Source: an uncultured Bacteroidales bacterium (GTDB lineage Bacteria; Bacteroidota; Bacteroidia; Bacteroidales; UBA3824). From it: a stretch of DNA of 64,000 nucleotides. The notes below the pieces were generated by a model. It searched no databases, was not told where the DNA came from, and saw only the letters and a list, made by a program, of their open reading frames with translations. Below are positions 31,148 through 43,298 of the stretch, piece after piece. The position numbers were made by a program, and so were the translations under genes. Location: contig CAMOSO010000027.1 in assembly GCA_946624925.1 (NCBI GenBank), forward strand, positions 23,115 to 87,114. The letters are read 5' to 3'. The first letter of the stretch is position 1; each line of letters begins with the position of its first letter.

Positions 31148-32101
31148 ATGATAGATGTTAGTATAATAATTGTTTGTATGAACAACATGGATAATCTTTA
31201 TCCTTGTTTGAATAGTATTAAAAAATTTACATTTGGAATAAAGTACGAAACACTTGTTGTCGCCTATTTATTTTCTAAAGAAAATCTAGATAAAGCTAAA
31301 CGCGATCATCAATGGGTAACGTTTATAGAAAGTAATGAAATAAGAGGATTCTCTGAGAATAATAATCTTGCGCTTAGATTATCAAAGGGGAAATATTGTT
31401 TTGTATTGAATGACGATACATATTTTGATGAAAATACGATAGGAACTCTTGTTAAGTCATTTCCATCCGATGATAGGTGCGCTATTGTAAGTCCAATTAC
31501 ACTCAACAAAAACGGTAGTGTACAAAGGTGTGGAAAACCTAAATATAATATTGGCACATATATTCTTGGGTTAGTTGGCTTGCTGAAAAAATATGAAACA
31601 AACTCTCAGTATACAAACAAAATAGGCATTTTTAAAACGTACAACATTTCAGGTGCCGCCTTTTTAATTAGAAGAGATATTTTTGAAAAATTTGGTTGGT
31701 TTGATGAAAAGTACTTCTTTTGTCCTGAAGACATAGCGCTATCAACATTATTAAACAAAAATGGTTACGAATGTTATGTCAATTCGAATACAAAACTCAC
31801 GCATGCCTGTGGTGGCACTTGGTCAAAAACAATATTAGCAACAAAACCTGCAACAGTAAAAGGATTGCTATACTTTTATCGGGACGAATCATTTTTTGCG
31901 GCGTTGATATATAGTTTTTTAGCAACTTTTGAATATTTTTTCAAAATGTTGTATTGGTTGATAAAGAACTCTATTAAGACTGATGAACATCGAAAAGTTA
32001 TGCTCAAAGCCAATTGGCATGGTTTTATGGCATTATTCTCGTTCGAAACGCCTAAACAATTATTTACTCGTTACTATTTACAAATGAAGAATGAAAAATA
32101 A
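31148..32101 (+). CDS. Glycosyltransferase family 2
   Basis: VSIIIVCMNN...NNNLALRLSKGKYCFVLNDDT (DxD) ...AAFLIRRDIF. ATG at 31148. Confidence 0.8.
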   Translation: MIDVSIIIVCMNNMDNLYPCLNSIKKFTFGIKYETLVVAYLFSKENLDKAKRDHQWVTFIESNEIRGFSENNNLALRLSKGKYCFVLNDDTYFDENTIGTLVKSFPSDDRCAIVSPITLNKNGSVQRCGKPKYNIGTYILGLVGLLKKYETNSQYTNKIGIFKTYNISGAAFLIRRDIFEKFGWFDEKYFFCPEDIALSTLLNKNGYECYVNSNTKLTHACGGTWSKTILATKPATVKGLLYFYRDESFFAALIYSFLATFEYFFKMLYWLIKNSIKTDEHRKVMLKANWHGFMALFSFETPKQLFTRYYLQMKNEK

Positions 32102-33347
32102 CATTCTATATACCATCAATAACACCCTCTGCACTGGCTGTGGCGTTTGCGAGGACGTTTGCAACAAACAATGCATCCTTATTCAAGAACAGAATGGCTT
32201 GTTTCGTCCGGTAATAAGGGAGAATGCTTGTAGTAATTGTGGTCGATGCCTTAAAGTGTGTCCAGGAACAGGTATTAATTTCAATGAATTTGTTGACACA
32301 GAGTATCAAAATTATGACAAATATATTGGCAATTACATTAATTTATATACAGGATATGCACTTAATCACGACATCAGGTTTCGCTCTGCATCAGGTGGTA
32401 TGGCAAGTCAATTATTAATTTATTTGTTAGAAAAAAAGATTGTGGACGGGGCTGTGGTTACAGGCTTCGCCGATGACCATATCACACCAATTTCATACAT
32501 AGCACGAAACAAGGAGGACGTATTTGCGGCGCGAAGTTCCAAATATTGTCCTGTTTCGCTCAACAAGGTTGGCAATGATATTGCCGCATCTAATGGCAAG
32601 TACGTTATTGTTGGATTGCCTTGTCATATACAAGGATTCCGCAAACGTATGAAAATTGACAAGAAACTTTCAGAACGTATTATAGGATTATTCGCAATAT
32701 ATTGTTCAAGCGAAAGAACGTTTGGGGCACGAGATTTTTTATTGCAACACTATAAAATTGAAAAAAAGAATATTGATTATTTTGCTTTTCGCGATAACGG
32801 TTGTTTGGGCAATTTAACCATAATGGAACGTCCGATGGATGGCGAACGTCGGGAGATGCAAATACCATACGAACACTACTATGGAAAAATTTTGCGAAGT
32901 TTTTTCAAGCCTCATAGATGCCTGACGTGTATTGACCATTATGGAGCTCTTGCGGATGTCTGCTTTGGCGACATTCATATTCCGCCGTATAGCGATGATA
33001 AGGTTGGTATTTCATCAGTAATTGTCAGGTCTAATTTTTGGCAAAAAATACTGCAGGATGCCGTTGCAGATGGGTATTGCAAAATCGAAAAACTTGATGC
33101 AGAAACATTAAATAAATCGCAAGCGGCTATGCTGTATCCCAAAAAATCACGAGCGAAAGCGGCGATGCACATTAACACTCTATTGCACCGCAAAAATCCT
33201 ATTTATGATTCAGACCTCAAGACGATACGGTGTGGCATAAATGATTATATGCATATTTTATCGTCTATGGCTCAAATGTTTATAGGTAGACATACCAAAC
33301 TGTGGTTTATAATCGAATTTCTTTCCCATTTCAAAAAAAATGAGTAA
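32091..33347 (+). CDS. FrhB/FdhB-like 4Fe-4S protein, copy 2
   Basis: CTGCGVCEDVC...CSNCGRCLKVCPG clusters. It overlaps both neighbours (11 nt and 8 nt). Confidence 0.75.
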   Translation: MKNNILYTINNTLCTGCGVCEDVCNKQCILIQEQNGLFRPVIRENACSNCGRCLKVCPGTGINFNEFVDTEYQNYDKYIGNYINLYTGYALNHDIRFRSASGGMASQLLIYLLEKKIVDGAVVTGFADDHITPISYIARNKEDVFAARSSKYCPVSLNKVGNDIAASNGKYVIVGLPCHIQGFRKRMKIDKKLSERIIGLFAIYCSSERTFGARDFLLQHYKIEKKNIDYFAFRDNGCLGNLTIMERPMDGERREMQIPYEHYYGKILRSFFKPHRCLTCIDHYGALADVCFGDIHIPPYSDDKVGISSVIVRSNFWQKILQDAVADGYCKIEKLDAETLNKSQAAMLYPKKSRAKAAMHINTLLHRKNPIYDSDLKTIRCGINDYMHILSSMAQMFIGRHTKLWFIIEFLSHFKKNE

Positions 33348-34503
33348 AAAAATTGGTTGCGTGTTAGCATATGGCTACAATTTTGGCACAATGTTGCAGT
33401 CGTATGCAACAATCAGCGCCATACATAAGTTGGGACACGAGTGCGAAATCATTCGTTACAACAAGCATGACGGTCTTCTGAAAAAAGCTGCTATGGTGTT
33501 TCGCGCTATAAGGATTGGCGACATTTCCGACCAAGTTCGCAAATACAAACAGAACATCAATATGCTTCTTCATTCGGATTATAAACGCAATATGGCTTTG
33601 CAGATCGCTGCATTCGAGAGGTTTGGAACTAAATATCTAAGACCTTTATTCCGCGAATATGACGGTTACGATGCATTGAAAGGGGGGGGAAATAATTACA
33701 ATTTAGTGCTTGTTGGCAGCGACCAATTGTGGACTCCTATGTCATTGTATGGCAATTATTACAACCTTGTGTTTGTAAGTGACAATATCCCCAAAGTTGC
33801 ATATGCGGCAAGTTTTGGAGTTTCTGAGATTCCGTCATTTCAACGAGATGCGACAAAAACATATCTCGACCGTTTCGCCAATATAGGTGTACGCGAAATT
33901 CAAGGAAAAAAAATAGTTGATTCACTATCTGTCAACAAGGCAGTCCATGTATCGGATCCGTCAATGTTGCTTAATGCAGAAGAGTGGAATGATATAGCAT
34001 CGGCAAATATTGAAGAGCTAAGCGGATTTCATGAGCCATACATCTTTTGCCTATTGCTTGGACCAAATACAGAGGCAAGGGAAGCCGCACATAAGTTACG
34101 TGAGAAAACAGGAATGAAAATAGTTGCAGTAGTCAACCTTGACGAATATGTTCCTGGAGACGAAGAATTTTGCGACATTTCACTTCACAATATTGCACCT
34201 GACGATTTTCTTAGGTTGGTTGCAAATGCTTCGTATGTCTGCACAGACTCGTTTCATTGCAGCATATTTTCAATTCTGTTCCACAGACAATTTATGGTAT
34301 TTTATCGCTATGCAGTCACCAAAAAAGGGGGGCGGAATTCGCGCATAGACAGCCTTTTATCCAAATTCGGACTTGAAAAGCGTTTGTTTTTGGGAGACAT
34401 AATGTCAATTGATGCTCCAATTAATTATGATGAAGTGGATAGACGTGTTACTGAGTTTCGTGAAATATCATTTAAATTCCTATCCGAATCGTTGTCATTA
34501 TAA
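33340..34503 (+). CDS. Polysaccharide pyruvyl transferase family protein, copy 2
   Basis: IGCVLAYGYNFGTMLQSYA and VGSDQLWTP motifs. Confidence 0.75.
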   Translation: MSKKIGCVLAYGYNFGTMLQSYATISAIHKLGHECEIIRYNKHDGLLKKAAMVFRAIRIGDISDQVRKYKQNINMLLHSDYKRNMALQIAAFERFGTKYLRPLFREYDGYDALKGGGNNYNLVLVGSDQLWTPMSLYGNYYNLVFVSDNIPKVAYAASFGVSEIPSFQRDATKTYLDRFANIGVREIQGKKIVDSLSVNKAVHVSDPSMLLNAEEWNDIASANIEELSGFHEPYIFCLLLGPNTEAREAAHKLREKTGMKIVAVVNLDEYVPGDEEFCDISLHNIAPDDFLRLVANASYVCTDSFHCSIFSILFHRQFMVFYRYAVTKKGGRNSRIDSLLSKFGLEKRLFLGDIMSIDAPINYDEVDRRVTEFREISFKFLSESLSL

Positions 34504-35716: not shown

Positions 35717-36751
35717 ATGTTTCAAACTTATCTTCTTACCTTACTATCACCTCTGTTAGGCGGCGGCAATGCTCTTGTTCACAGCAAACCGCAAGACAAC
35801 CAATTTTTCACCAAAGACTACACAACCGTATTGAAAGGACTCTGTTGTCTGATTGTTATTTATGTGCATGTGAAACCACCGTTTGACAATGCGTTGCAAG
35901 ATGCCATTGGAAGTTTCGGTTATGTGTGTGTAACGATTTTTTTCCTCATATCGGCATACGGTATGATGCTAAGCGCAGAGAGAAAGGAAGACTATCTTCA
36001 TAATTTTTGGCGCAACAGATTGGTGTCTCTTTTGATACCCGCGTTTTTAATCAATGTTGTAAGTTTTTGTCTTGACATTGTCAACAAAAATACATATACA
36101 TTCTCAGCGCTATATCATTTGAATGGTTATGTTGCTGTATTGTTACAATGGTGCTTATGGTTCTACATTGTAATGCTGTGTAAAAAGAAATGGTTTCCTG
36201 AAAATAACAGATTGACAGACATAATTCTGATTGCAGGTGTAATTGTTTCATCTTTGATACTCTATTTCTGGGTCTATTCAGGAAATAGTGCTGGTGCTGG
36301 ATGGTGTTTTGAACGCATTGGATTGATATGGGGAGTATTGCTTTATAGGTATTTCGACCAATTTGTTTTGTGGATGTCAAAATCACGCCTTGCAAAAATT
36401 GCAATCTTAACTATTGTTGGAGGCATGTTGGGAATTGGATATTTGAAGTTTAAACTCGTATATTTCTTTGGTGCATATCTACTGAAAATTATTTTAGGAG
36501 TTGCGATAATACTTCTTTTATTCACAGCAACTTCCAACAGAAAATTTGGCGATAAGATAAGCCTTTGGCTTGGAAACATATCGTATGAAGTATATCTTAG
36601 TCATGGAATCGTGATGGCAACATTGGCAACATGGCTTTTTGAAAACGTCAATAGCGGCGTATTTATACTTCTTACAGTGTTGGTTACTTTGACATTATCA
36701 ACCATTGTACACTCTATTGCCAAACCGATTGTAAAACTTTTGAGAAAATAA
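35717..36751 (+). CDS. Acyltransferase-3 family membrane protein (second copy in the locus)
   Basis: Polytopic, with VLKGLCCLIVIYVHV and ISYEVYLSHGIV motifs. The start is uncertain: a GTG at 35675 overlaps the previous gene, and an ATG lies at 35717. Confidence 0.7.
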   Translation: MFQTYLLTLLSPLLGGGNALVHSKPQDNQFFTKDYTTVLKGLCCLIVIYVHVKPPFDNALQDAIGSFGYVCVTIFFLISAYGMMLSAERKEDYLHNFWRNRLVSLLIPAFLINVVSFCLDIVNKNTYTFSALYHLNGYVAVLLQWCLWFYIVMLCKKKWFPENNRLTDIILIAGVIVSSLILYFWVYSGNSAGAGWCFERIGLIWGVLLYRYFDQFVLWMSKSRLAKIAILTIVGGMLGIGYLKFKLVYFFGAYLLKIILGVAIILLLFTATSNRKFGDKISLWLGNISYEVYLSHGIVMATLATWLFENVNSGVFILLTVLVTLTLSTIVHSIAKPIVKLLRK

Positions 36752-36766
36752 CAAATATAACATACT

Positions 36767-36826
36767 ATGTCAACCCAAAAACTCAACGGCATAGTTATAG
36801 TAACTTACCGTTGCAATGCACAGTAA
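36767..36826 (+). pseudogene. 19-codon relic of the 5' end of a radical-SAM gene (homologue of 38584..39795)
   Basis: It encodes MSTQKLNGIVIVTYRCNAQ*, compared with MSTPKLNGTVIVTYRCNARCSMC at 38584. About 47 of 57 nt are identical, and similarity stops at about 36823. Confidence 0.7.
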
Positions 36827-36838
36827 GTTACTATAACT
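36793..36838. repeat. Perfect 15-bp inverted repeat at the truncation point of the relic
   Basis: AGTTATAGTAACTTA (36793-36807) is the exact reverse complement of TAAGTTACTATAACT (36824-36838), with a 16-nt loop. The right arm begins exactly where homology to the intact gene ends. Confidence 0.85.
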
Positions 36839-36849
36839 CATCCACTGCA

Positions 36850-37368
36850 TCACGCCATATTTTCACGCAGTATCTCACACAATTGCCCGACATAGTAGAA
36901 CGGGACGTTGATAAGGCGGTAAGGGCGGCTTTCGGGTGCGGGAGTTGATACGTCTTGTACGGAATAATCGCCACTCCATACCCGTACTGCCGTTACATGG
37001 GAGTCGGCATTGTTGACGTAACTATGTAATGAACGCATGTGCGAGTTTGTGCCTGTTTTCACCTCGATGGGGATTATTTGTGAGTTGTATTGCCATACAA
37101 AATCAATTTCGGCTGTTGTACCTTACAAGTATTGCCAAATGGCTTTTACGTCATCTGTCTGTGTGAAAATATGAGCGTCTTCGGACAATTCGAGGTTTAC
37201 TTCAATGAAAACATCAAACTCTTTTCCGAACTCATGCACCAATGTACTTTTGCCCACTTGTCGTGCGCCACGTATTACAAGCGGCTTGCGAGGAGTTCTT
37301 TCGCTCCATTGCCTAAGTTGTGATATAAGTTCTCTTTCGTACATAATTACTTGTTTTTGTGTCCGCAA
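36850..37368 (-). pseudogene. Internally deleted AAA+ ATPase (COG1373 / DUF4143-type) gene with an in-frame stop
   Basis: The N-terminal part (37123..37368) carries the Walker A motif LVIRGARQVGKSTLV. The same frame continues after the TAA at 37123-37125 into ...IIPIEVKTGTNSHMRSLHSY...VRVWSGDYS...LINVPFYYVGQL, which is the family C-terminus. Only 173 codons remain, which looks well short of the full-length proteins of this family as I recall them. Confidence 0.6.
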
Positions 37369-37380
37369 AGATAATAATTA

Positions 37381-37464
37381 TTTCTAAAACATAGGCAAAA
37401 AGCATCAAAATTCTTTCTAAAACATAGGCAACATCTGCCAAAAATATTTCTAAAACATAGCCAA
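37381..37464. repeat. Three 18-bp direct repeats TTTCTAAAACATAG(G/C)CAA at exact 33-bp phasing
   Basis: Copies start at 37381, 37414 and 37447; the third has one mismatch. They lie between the ATPase pseudogene start and the promoter of the DUF4065-like gene. Confidence 0.85.
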
Positions 37465-37523
37465 CATAAAATTATGTCAACAGAAAAATCACTAAAAAAT
37501 TTTGCAGAGTATATGATAATTGT

Positions 37524-37531
37524 TATATTTG
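37524..37531 (+). promoter_or_regulatory. Bacteroides-type -7 box TATATTTG for the two-gene module
   Basis: It fits TAnnTTTG exactly and lies 22 nt before the ATG at 37554. A TTTG occurs at 37501-37504 in a -33-like position. Confidence 0.5.
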
Positions 37532-37553
37532 CCACAAAATAAAATTATCGCCT

Positions 37554-38105
37554 ATGTCTCGTAATAGATTATTCAAACAGGACGTTACTATCCAAGCAAT
37601 CCTGTACATTTTACAGGAGATGGGAGGTGTATGCGACATCCACAAGTGCCACAAGATTCTCTATTTTTCTGATAATGAACATTTGTCGCGTTGGGGAAGG
37701 TCTATTACAGGCGATTCGTACATCAAAATGGAATTCGGTCCTGTGCCGTCCTGTGTTTACGATATGTTGAAGGCAGTAAGGGGCGATAGTTTTTTTGCTC
37801 CACAGGTCAAAGACATCAGGGACAACCTATTTCATTTTGTAAATCAGAAGGATATACAACTTACATCCGCTCCTGATATGGATTATTTGTCAGAATCGGA
37901 AGTTGAAATTTTGGACAAATATATTACGAAATTCAAAAGTCTTACATTCCAGCAAGTATCAGAAATTTCGCACGGATATGCATGGAGCAACACAAAACGC
38001 TACGGCGAAATATCAGTGCGAGACAGACTTACTGAACTTGGCGACAACGATGATTATATCAATTTTGTAGAAGAACAACTAAAAGCGGAGGAGGCTTTTG
38101 TCTGA
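37554..38105 (+). CDS. Panacea / SocA-like (DUF4065) antitoxin-domain protein
   Basis: 183 aa. ILYILQEMGGVCDIHKCHKILYFSDNEHLSRWGRSITGDSYIKMEFGPVPSCVYDML fits my recollection of the DUF4065 pattern (KhLYF...G.Ph...Y....GPV...hY). This is a motif-level call only. Confidence 0.6.
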   Translation: MSRNRLFKQDVTIQAILYILQEMGGVCDIHKCHKILYFSDNEHLSRWGRSITGDSYIKMEFGPVPSCVYDMLKAVRGDSFFAPQVKDIRDNLFHFVNQKDIQLTSAPDMDYLSESEVEILDKYITKFKSLTFQQVSEISHGYAWSNTKRYGEISVRDRLTELGDNDDYINFVEEQLKAEEAFV

Positions 38106-38521
38106 TGGAACTGCCTACATCCATAATAGCCGGTTCATTAGGCAGGGGTTCTATTTTGCTTTCTGATTTTGAAGGCATCGACCACAGAAAATTTTTCGTT
38201 GTGATGGGAATCAGCAATTACAAGGTATGTGGGTTCTTTTTTATCAATTCAAATATTCATCCACTTGTTTTAAAAAAACAGGAACTCCTTGACTTGCAAT
38301 ACCCGTTGAAACATTCTGATTATCCTTTTCTTAAATATGATTCGTTTCTATGTGCTTCTACGGTCATAGAACGCAGCCTTGACGAAATATCCGAGGATAT
38401 TAATAGAGGCGGTACATCTATCATTGGACAACTGAAAGACAAACACATTGCCGATGTTTTGCAAATGGTAAGGGCATCTGTTGCCATCAGCAAAAGGCAC
38501 AAAAGGTTGTATTTCCAATAA
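38105..38521 (+). CDS. Hypothetical 138-aa protein, translationally coupled partner of the DUF4065-like gene (candidate toxin)
   Basis: The start overlaps the upstream stop (TGATG). I recognise no family. The gene is AT-rich like its partner. Confidence 0.55.
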   Translation: MELPTSIIAGSLGRGSILLSDFEGIDHRKFFVVMGISNYKVCGFFFINSNIHPLVLKKQELLDLQYPLKHSDYPFLKYDSFLCASTVIERSLDEISEDINRGGTSIIGQLKDKHIADVLQMVRASVAISKRHKRLYFQ

Positions 38522-38583
38522 TCATCATATAAAATATCCGTGTATTGGATTCCTAAACTTTCTAATACTTAGTCTATTATACC

Positions 38584-39795
38584 ATGTCAACCCCTAAACT
38601 CAACGGTACGGTAATAGTTACTTACCGTTGCAATGCGCGTTGCTCGATGTGCAACCGCTACAAGGCTCCGAGCAAGGCGGAGGAGGAAATCTCCATCGAA
38701 ACTATCAAGAAACTGCCCAAGATGTATTTCACCAACATCACCGGCGGCGAGCCTTTTATCAGGACGGATCTCAAGGAAATCGTCCGCGAACTTTATAAAC
38801 TCAGCGACCGCATCGTAATCTCCACCAACGGATTCTTCACGGACAGGATTTTGGATCTTTGCAAGGAGTTCCCGCAGATTGGAATCAGGATTTCTATCGA
38901 GGGTTTGGAAAAGACCAACAACGAGATTCGCGGTCTCAACGACGGCTATCAACGCGGATACACCACGCTCAAAAAACTCCGCGAAATGGGCATGAAGGAT
39001 GTCGGATTTGGCATGACTGTTCAAGACAAGAATGCGCCCGACCTCGTGCCTCTCTACAATATCAGCAACGAGATGGGAATGGAATTTGCAACCGCATCTC
39101 TGCACAATTCGTTCTACTTTGTGGAGGCAAAAAACATCATCCACGACCGTCCGATGGTGGCGAAGAATTTTGAAAACCTCGTCAACGAACTTCTGAAATC
39201 CAATTCGCCGAAAAAATGGTTCAGGGCGTATTTCAACCACGGTCTTATTAATTACATCTACGGACAAAAACGCTTGTTGCCGTGCGATATGAGTTTTGAT
39301 ACATTCTTCATCGACCCGTATGGAGACGTGATGCCCTGCAACGGCACCAAGGACAAGGAAGTGATGGGCAACCTCAACCGTCAGACCTGGGACGAACTTT
39401 GGAACTCGCCCGAGGCGGAAAAGGTGCGCAAAAAAGTACGTTGTTGTGACCGAAATTGTTGGATGATTGGTTCTGTATCGCCCGCAATGCACAAGTATTT
39501 CAGCAAACCGGCATGGTGGGTTTTCAAGCACAAATTGAAATCCATTTTTGGCAAGAAATATTCGATGTACGAGAATCCAATTTGTTGCGACTACCGCGAC
39601 GGCAAGGTTACCAAAGAGGATTTGGACAAACTCTCCACCTGCGACCTGAATGCCGAAATCAACAATGGTTTAAGTGCCGATTCTGTGGAGGCATTGAAAG
39701 GCAAACGCGGCGAGGATATTGTGAACGCTGATGTTGAATCGCAAGGATACGAAGGCACTGTCGCAGAAACGGATAGGAAGATTGAGATAAAGTAG
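38584..39795 (+). CDS. Radical SAM protein (possibly with a SPASM-like C-terminal Cys cluster)
   Basis: CNARCSMC (Cx3Cx2C) at residues 16-23, GGEPF, and later Cys motifs PCDMS...MPCNG...CCDRNCW. Base composition returns to that of the flanks at this gene. Confidence 0.85.
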   Translation: MSTPKLNGTVIVTYRCNARCSMCNRYKAPSKAEEEISIETIKKLPKMYFTNITGGEPFIRTDLKEIVRELYKLSDRIVISTNGFFTDRILDLCKEFPQIGIRISIEGLEKTNNEIRGLNDGYQRGYTTLKKLREMGMKDVGFGMTVQDKNAPDLVPLYNISNEMGMEFATASLHNSFYFVEAKNIIHDRPMVAKNFENLVNELLKSNSPKKWFRAYFNHGLINYIYGQKRLLPCDMSFDTFFIDPYGDVMPCNGTKDKEVMGNLNRQTWDELWNSPEAEKVRKKVRCCDRNCWMIGSVSPAMHKYFSKPAWWVFKHKLKSIFGKKYSMYENPICCDYRDGKVTKEDLDKLSTCDLNAEINNGLSADSVEALKGKRGEDIVNADVESQGYEGTVAETDRKIEIK

Positions 39796-41516: not shown

Positions 41517-43298
41517 TTATTGTTTGTTGTTCATTAGTTTCTTGATTTCTTCGATCTGCGCTGCAAAGTAAGCACTTTTTTCGGGATATTTCAAGTTAAG
41601 TTTTTCATAACTTGCAATCGCCTTGTCATAGTGTCCCTGCTGGATGTAGAGCTTTGCGAGCTTCTCGGAGTAGAGTTCGGGCTGCTTTACCGAATCCTGA
41701 CCCATGTCGCCTGCTGTAACTTCCTTGTTGCGGTCGAGATGGTGATCTTCTTGCAGGAACTTGTCGATGAGGTTGGGACTATCGGTCTTTGCAGGTGCCG
41801 GCTCCGTCTGCTTGTACTTGTTGAGACGGGCGAGAAGTTTGTCTGCCGCCGACATTTCAGTTGCTTCCTCCGCAGGTTTGGCAGGTTCGATGGGCTTCGC
41901 TGGCTCTTCGGCTTTCACTTCCTCTACTACGACAGCGTTTTCTACTGGCTCTATCGTTGTGGTAACGGTCTCCGTCACTGTTGTTGTAGTTACGGTAGTT
42001 GTAACAGCTTTTGCAGCGTCTTCGGCCGCTTTTGCTTTTGCAGCTTCGGCTTCGGCTTTTGCCTTTGCTGCGGCTGCTTCCGCTTCCGCCTGGGCTTTTG
42101 CAGCTGCTTCTGCCTCTGCTTTTGCCTTTGCTGCGGCGGCTTCCGCCTCCGCCTTGGCTTTTGCTGCGGCGGCTTCCGCTTCGGCTTTTGCCTTGGCTGC
42201 CGCCGCCTCTGCCTCCGCTACACGTTTTGCCTCCTCTTCGGCTGCGGCTTTGGTCTTCTTCGCCTCCTCTTCGGCGATGATGCGTTTTCTATTTGCCTCC
42301 TCGCGCTCTTTGCGAAGCATTGCTATCTTGTCGAGGATTTCGTCCTTGTTGCCGTCTTTGGGCTGTTCAGCCTTCGGAGCTTCTGCCTTCGGAGCTTCTG
42401 CCTTCGGAGCTTCAGTTTTTGGAGCTTCGGGCTTGGACTCCTCGGCTTTTGCGGGTTCTTCCGACGCCTTGATGGTCTTTTCTTCTACTGTGGTAACTAC
42501 CGTGGTGGTAGTGGTCTGCTTTGATGCAGCAGTACGGTCGTTGATTACAGTGCCACGGTCTATCTGACTCTTTGCGGCGAGTTCGGCGGCTGCAGATTTT
42601 ATCGAGCCATCTGCCGCGACGTTGGTGGCTACTGTTTCATATTGTTCCTTGTCCTTGAGGTCAAAGAAATCTTTCACGAGATTTTCGTGGTTTTGCTTGC
42701 GTTCCTCGTTGGACAATACTTTCTTGTCGTTGCCTTCCTGAGCCTTGGGCTTTATTGTGGGACGGTCCTTGGACTCTTTGGCTTCTTTGGTCTCCTGAGA
42801 CTCTTTGGGTTCTTTGATTTCCTTAACCTCTATCACAGGAGTTTTCTTCTCGGTCTGCGTCTCGATTACAGTGGTGGTGGTCTTTGTTGTTATGACACTT
42901 GCCTTGTCGGTCGATGCTGGCGCGCTGACTTCTACCTTCACTGACGGAGCTTTCTTTTCCTCCTGTTTGGGTGTATCATCCTTCTTTTCCTCGGTCTTGG
43001 GTGCAGATGGTGCCGTTGCCGCAGGTTTTGCTGCCGACTTGTTTTCGGCGGCGTCGTCTGTTGTGGCACGGAGTAAGTTGTGCAATACCGACCTGTCGGA
43101 TACATACAGCGATTCTTTGGGCAACTTTTCCTTCACAAGCTTTGGGTTGATTCTGTTGAGTGCCTTCAGATACAGAAGGTGCGCCGTCTGGAAGAAGGGA
43201 AACTGCTTGATAAGCTGTTCCATCTCCACGACGGAGCTGTCGTTGAGCTGCTCCGGCTCTACGAGGTATTTGAAGAATTGTTTTGAAGTCATAATCAA
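41517..43298 (-). CDS. Low-complexity (Ala/Glu/Lys/Pro-rich) protein with a C-terminal TPR
   Basis: 593 aa. The C-terminus is [32 protein letters not shown]. The middle consists of [11 protein letters not shown] and EAPKA repeats. Confidence 0.75.
42031..42430 (-). repeat. In-frame coding tandem repeats: about 33-bp units ([11 protein letters not shown], about 5.5 copies, roughly 42031-42222) and 15-bp units (EAPKA, about 4 copies, roughly 42368-42430)
   Basis: Read directly from the DNA and the translation. The unit boundaries are approximate. Confidence 0.75.

Follow-up and report, generated by a model that had tools for sequence, protein, structure and literature searches.

A gene pair in a 64,000-nucleotide stretch of DNA from an uncultured Bacteroidales bacterium (contig CAMOSO010000027.1, positions 23,115 to 87,114; hereafter the window) probably encodes a genuine type II toxin-antitoxin system of the PanAT type, in which a Panacea-domain antitoxin would be coupled to a toxin with a MazF fold. 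Based on sequence comparisons and structure predictions, we put the probability of this reading at about 0.7. That the toxin, here designated PanT, is specifically a ribonuclease (RNase) appears somewhat less certain to us.

The putative antitoxin gene panA (37554..38105, + strand) encodes a stand-alone Panacea-domain protein of 183 amino acids (aa) with an acidic C-terminal tail (residues 145-183). It is followed by panT (38105..38521, + strand), whose 138-aa product is a divergent member of the PemK/MazF superfamily and a putative endoribonuclease toxin. The TGA of panA (38103-38105) and the ATG of panT (38105-38107) have one A in common, and the resulting TGATG stop/start overlap (38103..38107, + strand), as read from the sequence, would couple the translation of the two genes. 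Upstream of panA lies a promoter-like element of the Bacteroidetes type (37501..37531, + strand), which consists of TTTG (-33; 37501-37504), 19 nucleotides (nt), and TATATTTG (-7; 37524-37531), the latter located 23 nt 5' of the panA ATG. We take this spacing to represent the Bacteroidetes -33/-7 promoter layout, so that the element may function as a promoter. Both the overlap and a TAnnTTTG box at 37524 had been pointed out in an earlier, sequence-only reading of this stretch; both are present, and a box was found at an equivalent distance in most related loci. The two proteins are of opposite charge types, with an isoelectric point (pI) of 5.1 for PanA versus 8.55 for PanT. Rfam and terminator scans of the region from 36.5 to 38.9 kb gave no match.

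A search of the 183-aa protein against Pfam revealed a match to SocA_Panacea (PF13274, DUF4065) over residues 34-144, with E 1.5e-23 and 84.3 bits at a cut-off of 25.7. The SocA/Panacea domain that the sequence-only reading had recognised in this product is therefore real. PHROG 1281 was also matched (E 6e-18). With the NCBIfam SocA equivalog NF047745, PanA scored 19.8 bits, far under the cut-off of 190. No recognisable DNA-binding domain and no extra N-terminal domain were detected in PanA. Its C-terminal tail is conserved and carries a net charge of -5 to -9 in 13 orthologues. The acidic tail of MazE is known to occupy the RNA groove of MazF. The tail of PanA is likewise a reasonable candidate for the neutralising element. 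For a different PanA, the C-terminal helices neutralise the toxin of that PanA (Ernits et al., 2023).

The 138-aa partner had been described as a protein that fits no family, and searches of Pfam, NCBIfam, PADLOC, and PHROGs indeed returned no match for PanT. A phmmer search against the PDB yielded only chance-level matches, which were weak and led to L27e. Close homologues numbered 296, nearly all of them 138-140 aa long, and an alignment of 41 sequences contained 48 invariant columns, so the pair is clearly no product of chance. When 1.84 billion representative proteins were searched with a profile, the family grew to 606 clusters at 50% identity (E <= 1e-3), ranging over gut and rumen Bacteroidales, Flavobacteriia, Enterobacterales, and phages. 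The species-level genomes with the close subfamily belong to rumen or gut Prevotella or other Bacteroidales, and one relative is a protein of a Caudoviricetes metagenome-assembled genome (MAG).

To place PanT, two profiles were used: A2, made from diverse members of the PanT family, and A4, representing a sister subfamily of 156-164-aa proteins from Bacteroides, Prevotella, Tannerellaceae, and Serratia. The best PDB match of A2 was MazF of S. aureus (residues 15-121, almost the full length), with a weak E of 0.23; hhalign of A2 against the same protein gave P 9.5e-4, in the register of the profile-versus-PDB alignment. The eight top PDB matches of A4 were MazF, PemK, or EndoA without exception. 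Moreover, 10 of 33 A4 members matched Pfam PemK_toxin (PF02452; best E 1.3e-4), and no other family recurred; member P0408, with 21.2 bits, stayed under the gathering score of 23.1. The two profiles aligned with each other in hhalign at a probability of 99.95 and E 1.7e-37. Because this A2-A4 alignment supplies the bridge, the support for homology between PanT and PemK/MazF is entirely transitive. One family member, WP_297134367.1, carries the NCBI name 'type II toxin-antitoxin system PemK/MazF family toxin'. None of the profile matches of the PanT family led to CcdB; all of them led to MazF, PemK, or EndoA. A Pfam scan of 42 diverse A2 members gave scattered single chance matches only, and a word-indexed search repeated with A2 recovered the close rumen subfamily again, with little gained. 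We conclude that PanT represents a far-diverged branch within the PemK/MazF superfamily, an assignment with good overall support despite its failure at the Pfam threshold. A MazF/PemK-type beta-barrel had been proposed for this protein as a hunch, which the A4 link, the PF02452 matches, and the PDB profile matches now substantiate. The additional suggestion of a plausible new toxin family did not hold, if a new fold or a new kind of toxin is meant by this.

Structure prediction gave a mixed picture. An AlphaFold2 (AF2) model of PanT built from the close alignment (model 1) had a predicted local distance difference test score (pLDDT) of 80.5. Its top three matches in a Foldseek search of the PDB, and the only significant ones, were MazF proteins of B. 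subtilis and M. tuberculosis (E 1.5e-4 to 1.5e-3, TMt 0.66-0.72). Model 2, built from the diverse alignment, reached a pLDDT of 94.6 and a predicted template modelling score (pTM) of 0.87. When it was compared with BFVD, a library of viral structures, the top three matches were labelled 'Endoribonuclease' or 'PemK-like protein' (probability 1.00, E 1e-3 to 4e-3, TM 0.53-0.59). MazF/PemK-like proteins thus came out on top in two of three Foldseek searches but not in the third, model 2 against the PDB. Both models show the element order beta1-beta2-beta3-alpha-beta4-beta5-alpha-beta6-alphaC, which we take to agree with the MazF topology.

The catalytic residues of MazF are an Arg (R25 in the B. 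subtilis and R29 in the E. coli protein) and a Thr/Ser (T48 and T52, respectively). According to the HMMER alignment, Lys29 of PanT, as the only family-invariant residue, falls on the catalytic Arg, and the near-invariant Ser80 coincides with the Ser in the 'DS' motif of MazF. The position of the catalytic Thr falls three residues past a conserved I-N-S motif of the PanT family. In hhalign, the register at the Arg position moves by one residue to Arg28, which is not conserved family-wide. Because of this displacement, any catalytic assignment in PanT is tentative.

We then asked how constant the association of the two genes is across genomes. Among the first 24 loci, which were fetched via the 138-aa protein, panT was located directly 3' of a Panacea gene 64-86% identical to panA of the window. 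By tblastn, both genes were found in unchanged order and on a shared strand in 30 of 35 related loci. PanA was 183 aa long in all 15 non-redundant loci inspected at the junction, which read T[AG]ATG in 14 of them and ATGA (-4) in the remaining one. A TAnnTTTG box precedes panA by 20-40 nt in most copies, within otherwise unrelated flanks. Distant relatives of PanT (31-34% identity) likewise reside 3' of Panacea genes, for example in B. finegoldii, in a Serratia phage, and in the metagenomic locus L029. In B. finegoldii (NZ_OY725926.1, 'plasmid 24'; L027:3284-4663), the pair consists of 191 and 156 aa, and the upstream gene is annotated by NCBI as 'Panacea domain-containing protein'. The Serratia phage vB_SspS_OS31 (MT843276.1; L028:2288-3318) encodes the 'hypothetical' proteins p23 and p24, a Panacea protein (E 1.4e-22) and a MazF-like one, with a one-base overlap of their genes. 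Both members of the pair are under strong purifying selection (dN 0.08-0.29, with saturated dS); most dN/dS ratios are not computable because of this saturation.

As to the surroundings of these distant pairs, the B. finegoldii copy lies among phage-like genes for a Rha regulator, HTH proteins, and a DUF3853 protein, and is followed by a conserved 95-aa gene. A partial tandem copy of the toxin in Bacteroides was considered and rejected, as homologues of this 95-aa protein, although listed in one protein cluster with the toxin, are unrelated to it in sequence. The genes for p23 and p24 take up a place typical of morons, with the Q antiterminator gene on one side and a methyltransferase/lysis cassette on the other.

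The pair occupies at least 12 distinct neighbourhoods. At least four different polysaccharide loci hold it (the window, L001/L016, L013/L014, and L021), and in L018, L031, and L034 it adjoins FabH/ATP-grasp or DegT genes. In L021 (4739-7992; MAG Bacteroidales Tb.RUG.328), it lies directly between a gene for a 230-aa KOW-motif protein, similar to the UpxY/NusG antiterminators of capsule loci, and a Polysacc_synt flippase gene. This copy is apparently transcribed with the capsule operon, because there is no TAnnTTTG box upstream of panA. Housekeeping contexts include a position between der and hslR and one 3' of gltX. One copy is located 3' of an integrase gene, and another lies beside HicA. A defence-type island of the isolate Prevotella sp. 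tf2-5 (NZ_FOWK01000013.1; L024:3327-8430) comprises AbiEii, the pair, a DUF7724 gene, and AbiH. In L020, the pair is found downstream of an intact, divergent AAA_14/DUF4143 ATPase gene and next to a ResIII helicase, and the relative in L029 is near an AAA_15/AAA_21 ATPase. Because the pair is strictly syntenic and coupled across many unrelated contexts, we conclude that it behaves as an autonomous, mobile two-gene cassette of the toxin-antitoxin type, unlike the polysaccharide genes. This agrees with the sequence-only reading, which had considered the pair an autonomous module unrelated to polysaccharide synthesis and had asked whether PanT homologues recur next to DUF4065 genes.

PanAT systems were defined in 2022 by Kurata and coworkers, who predicted 1,268 pairs with dozens of toxin clusters (Kurata et al., 2022, PNAS, PMC8832971). 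Translation is inhibited by two MazF-like PanT proteins of that study, one of Pseudomonas moraviensis and one of Bifidobacterium ruminantium, both with HHpred similarity to EndoA/PemK/MazF and no CDD hits; in each case the cognate PanA neutralises the toxin (PMC8832971). The representative of cluster T5 in Dataset S1 has a 99.5% HHpred probability to EndoA/MazF, and the T5 entries listed there are named 'hypothetical protein', classified as 'noNTD', and arranged in antitoxin-then-toxin order, often with a gap of -1 (PMC8832971). The taxa listed for T5 include Prevotella histicola, P. nigrescens, P. copri, P. stercorea, Bacteroides, and Parabacteroides as well as Flavobacteriia, Photorhabdus, and Enterobacterales (PMC8832971). 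The pair of the window resembles T5 and T6 in having a 'noNTD' Panacea antitoxin upstream and the toxin downstream at a -1 overlap; the toxin lacks a CDD or Pfam hit, shows remote MazF/EndoA/PemK similarity, and has a taxonomic range similar to that of the listed entries. It differs from T5 in that the PanT subfamily is more remote from canonical MazF (profile-to-PDB E of 0.23 versus the HHpred probability of 99.5% for the listed T5 representative). Among the Dataset S1 entries listed, neither WP_151936775 nor WP_195398944 occurs, nor do the names 'finegoldii', 'tf2', or 'Serratia phage'. Judged by taxonomy, gene order, gap, and MazF similarity, the PanT family likely corresponds to cluster T5 or an adjacent one. 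As in PanAT systems generally, a Panacea domain is present, and the adjacent, co-directional pair is kept across genomes with varying flanks; a match to PF02452 above the gathering score, as would mark a PemK/MazF protein, is lacking in PanT.

Comparison with other toxin-antitoxin systems revealed both shared and distinct features. PanAT of the window resembles MazEF and PemIK (Kid-Kis) in the predicted barrel topology with a C-terminal helix, the 'DS' motif, the combination of a basic toxin with an acidic-tailed antitoxin, and the antitoxin-first operon with overlapping genes. However, the antitoxin is a Panacea protein instead of an AbrB/SpoVT- or RHH-type MazE/PemI, and PanT falls under the PF02452 threshold, shows a Lys at the position of the catalytic Arg in the HMMER alignment, and possesses an extra N-terminal and an extra C-terminal helix (138 aa versus ~110 aa). 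SocA of the Caulobacter type VI system SocAB is the founding Panacea-domain protein. PanA, in contrast, remains far from the SocA cut-off (19.8 bits versus 190), its MazF-like partner is unrelated to SocB, and there is no sign of a ClpXP-adaptor mechanism for PanA. ToxN of the type III/abortive-infection system ToxIN was the best, albeit non-significant, PDB match of model 2 (E 0.2). Structurally, this endoribonuclease is of the Kid/MazF-like class. The system described here differs from ToxIN by its protein antitoxin; a repeated RNA antitoxin was not indicated, either by the Rfam scan or by a pair-linked tandem repeat in the other loci.

Some of our results weigh against a MazF-type toxin-antitoxin pair. 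PanT does not match PF02452 significantly in a direct search, and its relatives remain under the gathering score. The Foldseek search of the PDB with model 2 returned nothing under E 0.2, ToxN being the best match. At the position of the catalytic MazF Arg, an Arg is not conserved, and for the catalytic Thr the alignments offer no clear conserved equivalent; for these reasons RNase activity of PanT is not assured. Classic autoregulation is unsupported, because PanA lacks a recognisable DNA-binding domain. Finally, the only T5 pair tested, from Chryseobacterium bovis, was atypical in E. coli in that both the over-expressed toxin and the over-expressed antitoxin were toxic (PMC8832971).

With regard to its biological role, the pair might be mainly an anti-phage abortive-infection module, in which PanA would sense infection and then set free or activate the MazF-like effector, with addiction as a secondary effect. 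This view concerns the role only and is compatible with an identical molecular anatomy. It is favoured by the copies in defence-type surroundings (AbiEii/AbiH in L024, ResIII and AAA_14 in L020, AAA_15/AAA_21 in L029), by the relatives in phage genomes (Serratia phage OS31 and the Caudoviricetes MAG protein), and by the bearing of capsule loci on phage susceptibility. In Bacteroides, phage susceptibility is determined by capsule loci. However, neither PanA nor PanT matched PADLOC-DB 2.0 at E <= 1, and the majority of contexts are polysaccharide or housekeeping regions, not defence islands. We therefore consider abortive infection as the main role unlikely, though with a real chance of being correct.

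The deviating catalytic positions also invite the idea that the PanT barrel exerts a toxicity other than RNA cleavage, such as CcdB-like gyrase poisoning or an attack on another target. CcdB and MazF are of one fold according to the HHpred matches listed for T5 (PMC8832971). A Lys takes the position of the catalytic Arg in the HMMER alignment of PanT, the Thr is without a clear equivalent, and model 2 is not significantly superposable on any MazF chain of the PDB. On the other hand, all profile matches are to MazF, PemK, or EndoA and none is to CcdB, the structural matches in BFVD are labelled endoribonuclease or PemK-like, and the 'DS' motif of MazF is kept. Furthermore, both validated PanA-linked MazF-like toxins block translation. 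A non-RNase toxin thus appears improbable.

Even less probable is a conserved but non-toxic two-gene operon, for example one with a regulatory or RNA-processing role in the expression of polysaccharide loci. Such a function would fit the repeated co-directional embedding in polysaccharide operons and the L021 copy without its own promoter box, and about 1,000 Panacea proteins in the survey of Kurata et al. had no toxin-antitoxin-like partner (PMC8832971). Yet the pair is also present in many contexts unrelated to polysaccharides, most copies have a promoter box of their own, the partner belongs to a toxin superfamily, and toxin-antitoxin cassettes typically show the kind of patchy, mobile distribution seen here.

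In the window, the pair resides in an inserted segment of ~1.75 kb (~36820-38563) between two starts of a radical-SAM gene. At the left junction (36747..36838, + strand), 73 nt remain of a radical-SAM gene start, with 19 of its codons; behind this relic, part of it recurs as an inverted copy of 19 nt. Positions 36747-36819 form a direct repeat of 38564-38636 with 79% identity over 73 nt, spanning the ribosome-proximal region and the first 19 codons of the radical-SAM gene 38584..39795. The relic encodes MSTQKLNGIVIVTYRCNAQ and the start of the intact gene encodes MSTPKLNGTVIVTYRCNAR, with 16 of 19 residues identical (tblastn). At the end of the relic, a fold-back junction is formed by a 19-nt inverted repeat (36793-36811/36820-36838) with 95% complementarity and an 8-nt loop. 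The right junction (38564..39795, + strand) contains the intact radical-SAM/SPASM gene (Radical_SAM E 1.6e-17, SPASM E 3.3e-11), which belongs to the context outside the cassette. The segment further carries a decayed AAA_14/DUF4143 ATPase gene (36850..37368, - strand), of which the first 81 and the last ~90 codons are left, the middle being deleted. The N-terminal piece (37123..37368, - strand) matches AAA_14 with E 1.4e-7 and the C-terminal piece (36850..37119, - strand) matches DUF4143 at profile positions 139-160 of 160 with E 0.002; both are in one frame with a stop between them. The sequence-only reading had noted that the pair lies, with a dead ATPase gene, between a relic and an intact radical-SAM copy, and had taken it for an inserted module; the relic, the dead gene, and an insertion into a polysaccharide locus are all confirmed. 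The intact divergent ATPase gene upstream of the pair in L020, which matches the decayed gene in position and orientation, likely represents the ancestral arrangement.

Three tandem 33-bp repeats (37371..37469, + strand) with the 18-nt conserved core TTTCTAAAACATAGSCAA separate the start of the ATPase remnant from the promoter-like element of panA. The core gave three matches versus 0.04 expected. The 33-bp repeats are absent from all other pair-bearing loci compared and are unique to the contig of the window, and the non-coding DNA of the insertion showed no similarity to those loci. An empty site with the same radical-SAM protein was not found; this protein is on record only with the insertion context. 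With a length of 73 nt and an identity of just 79%, the flanking repeat is no transposition target duplication; it looks like a trace of recombination between diverged radical-SAM alleles.

Upstream of the pair, the polysaccharide locus contains genes for pyruvyl transferases, glycosyltransferases, and an acyltransferase. The radical-SAM gene and a further glycosyltransferase gene follow downstream, and then secG and lptE. Two pyruvyl-transferase genes are present (window 32091-34503 and upstream; L025:1-6399), one of which is preceded by an FrhB/FdhB-like ferredoxin-domain gene with overlapping ends (33340 against 33347). Between secG and lptE, an open reading frame on the - strand (41517-43298) encodes 593 aa with Ala/Glu/Lys low-complexity repeats and Thr/Val-rich stretches, for which no Pfam match was recorded. 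The dead ATPase gene and the rearrangement scars might suggest that panA and panT are decaying, inactive passengers as well, but this is scarcely credible given that both reading frames are intact and full length, every family-invariant residue is present, the start/stop overlap and the promoter box are preserved, and an identical protein occurs on several independent metagenome contigs.

If the pair is a PanAT-type toxin-antitoxin system, as we favour, panA and panT are probably transcribed from their own TTTG/TAnnTTTG promoter, and the TGATG coupling would ensure that the toxin is made only together with the antitoxin. Judging from homology, free PanT would most likely act as a sequence-specific endoribonuclease that halts translation and growth. 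PanA would most likely neutralise it by direct binding, with the C-terminal helix (~160-183) as a plausible RNA mimic in the toxin groove, comparable to the MazE tail in MazF. Such a system may serve to stabilise the locus, to ensure its own selfish persistence, or to abort infections. The cassette presumably reached the polysaccharide locus inside the ~1.75-kb segment, together with the now decayed ATPase gene. Arrival by recombination rather than transposition is indicated because the diverged duplication of the radical-SAM 5' end brackets the segment.

Pairs of Panacea and MazF-like proteins are already catalogued, and two of them have been validated experimentally (Kurata et al., 2022, PMC8832971). 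What is new here is the explicit placement of an unmodelled subfamily and the description of copies in Prevotella capsule loci; a search of the literature on Panacea or toxin-antitoxin systems in Bacteroidales capsule loci found nothing specific. The earlier interpretation was right in essence and over-optimistic on novelty. The pair opens no new mechanistic category. It gives an annotation, as probable MazF-like toxin partners of stand-alone Panacea antitoxins, to a widespread family of 'hypothetical proteins' for which there is no Pfam, NCBIfam, PHROG, or PADLOC model, and provides a clean example of partner swapping by Panacea proteins. The PanT family, a far-removed MazF branch in which an invariant Lys seems to take the position of the catalytic Arg, could inform studies of specificity.

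Capsule loci are central to phage susceptibility and gut fitness. The window documents the entry of a probable toxin-antitoxin cassette into such a locus, apparently by recombination, with the scars still visible, and the pair recurs in several capsule loci. Of all its features, only this recurrent embedding in polysaccharide operons, in the direction of their transcription, could conceal something of greater interest. Conceivably, although we regard it as a long shot, this embedding is functional and not hitch-hiking, with control of the toxin tied to transcription of the capsule locus and a Lys-for-Arg MazF variant as the effector, whose RNA specificity or target would be unlike that of canonical MazF. 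If so, a given capsule type could be stabilised or 'locked' by the cassette, or the cassette could switch on abortive infection when phages use that capsule.

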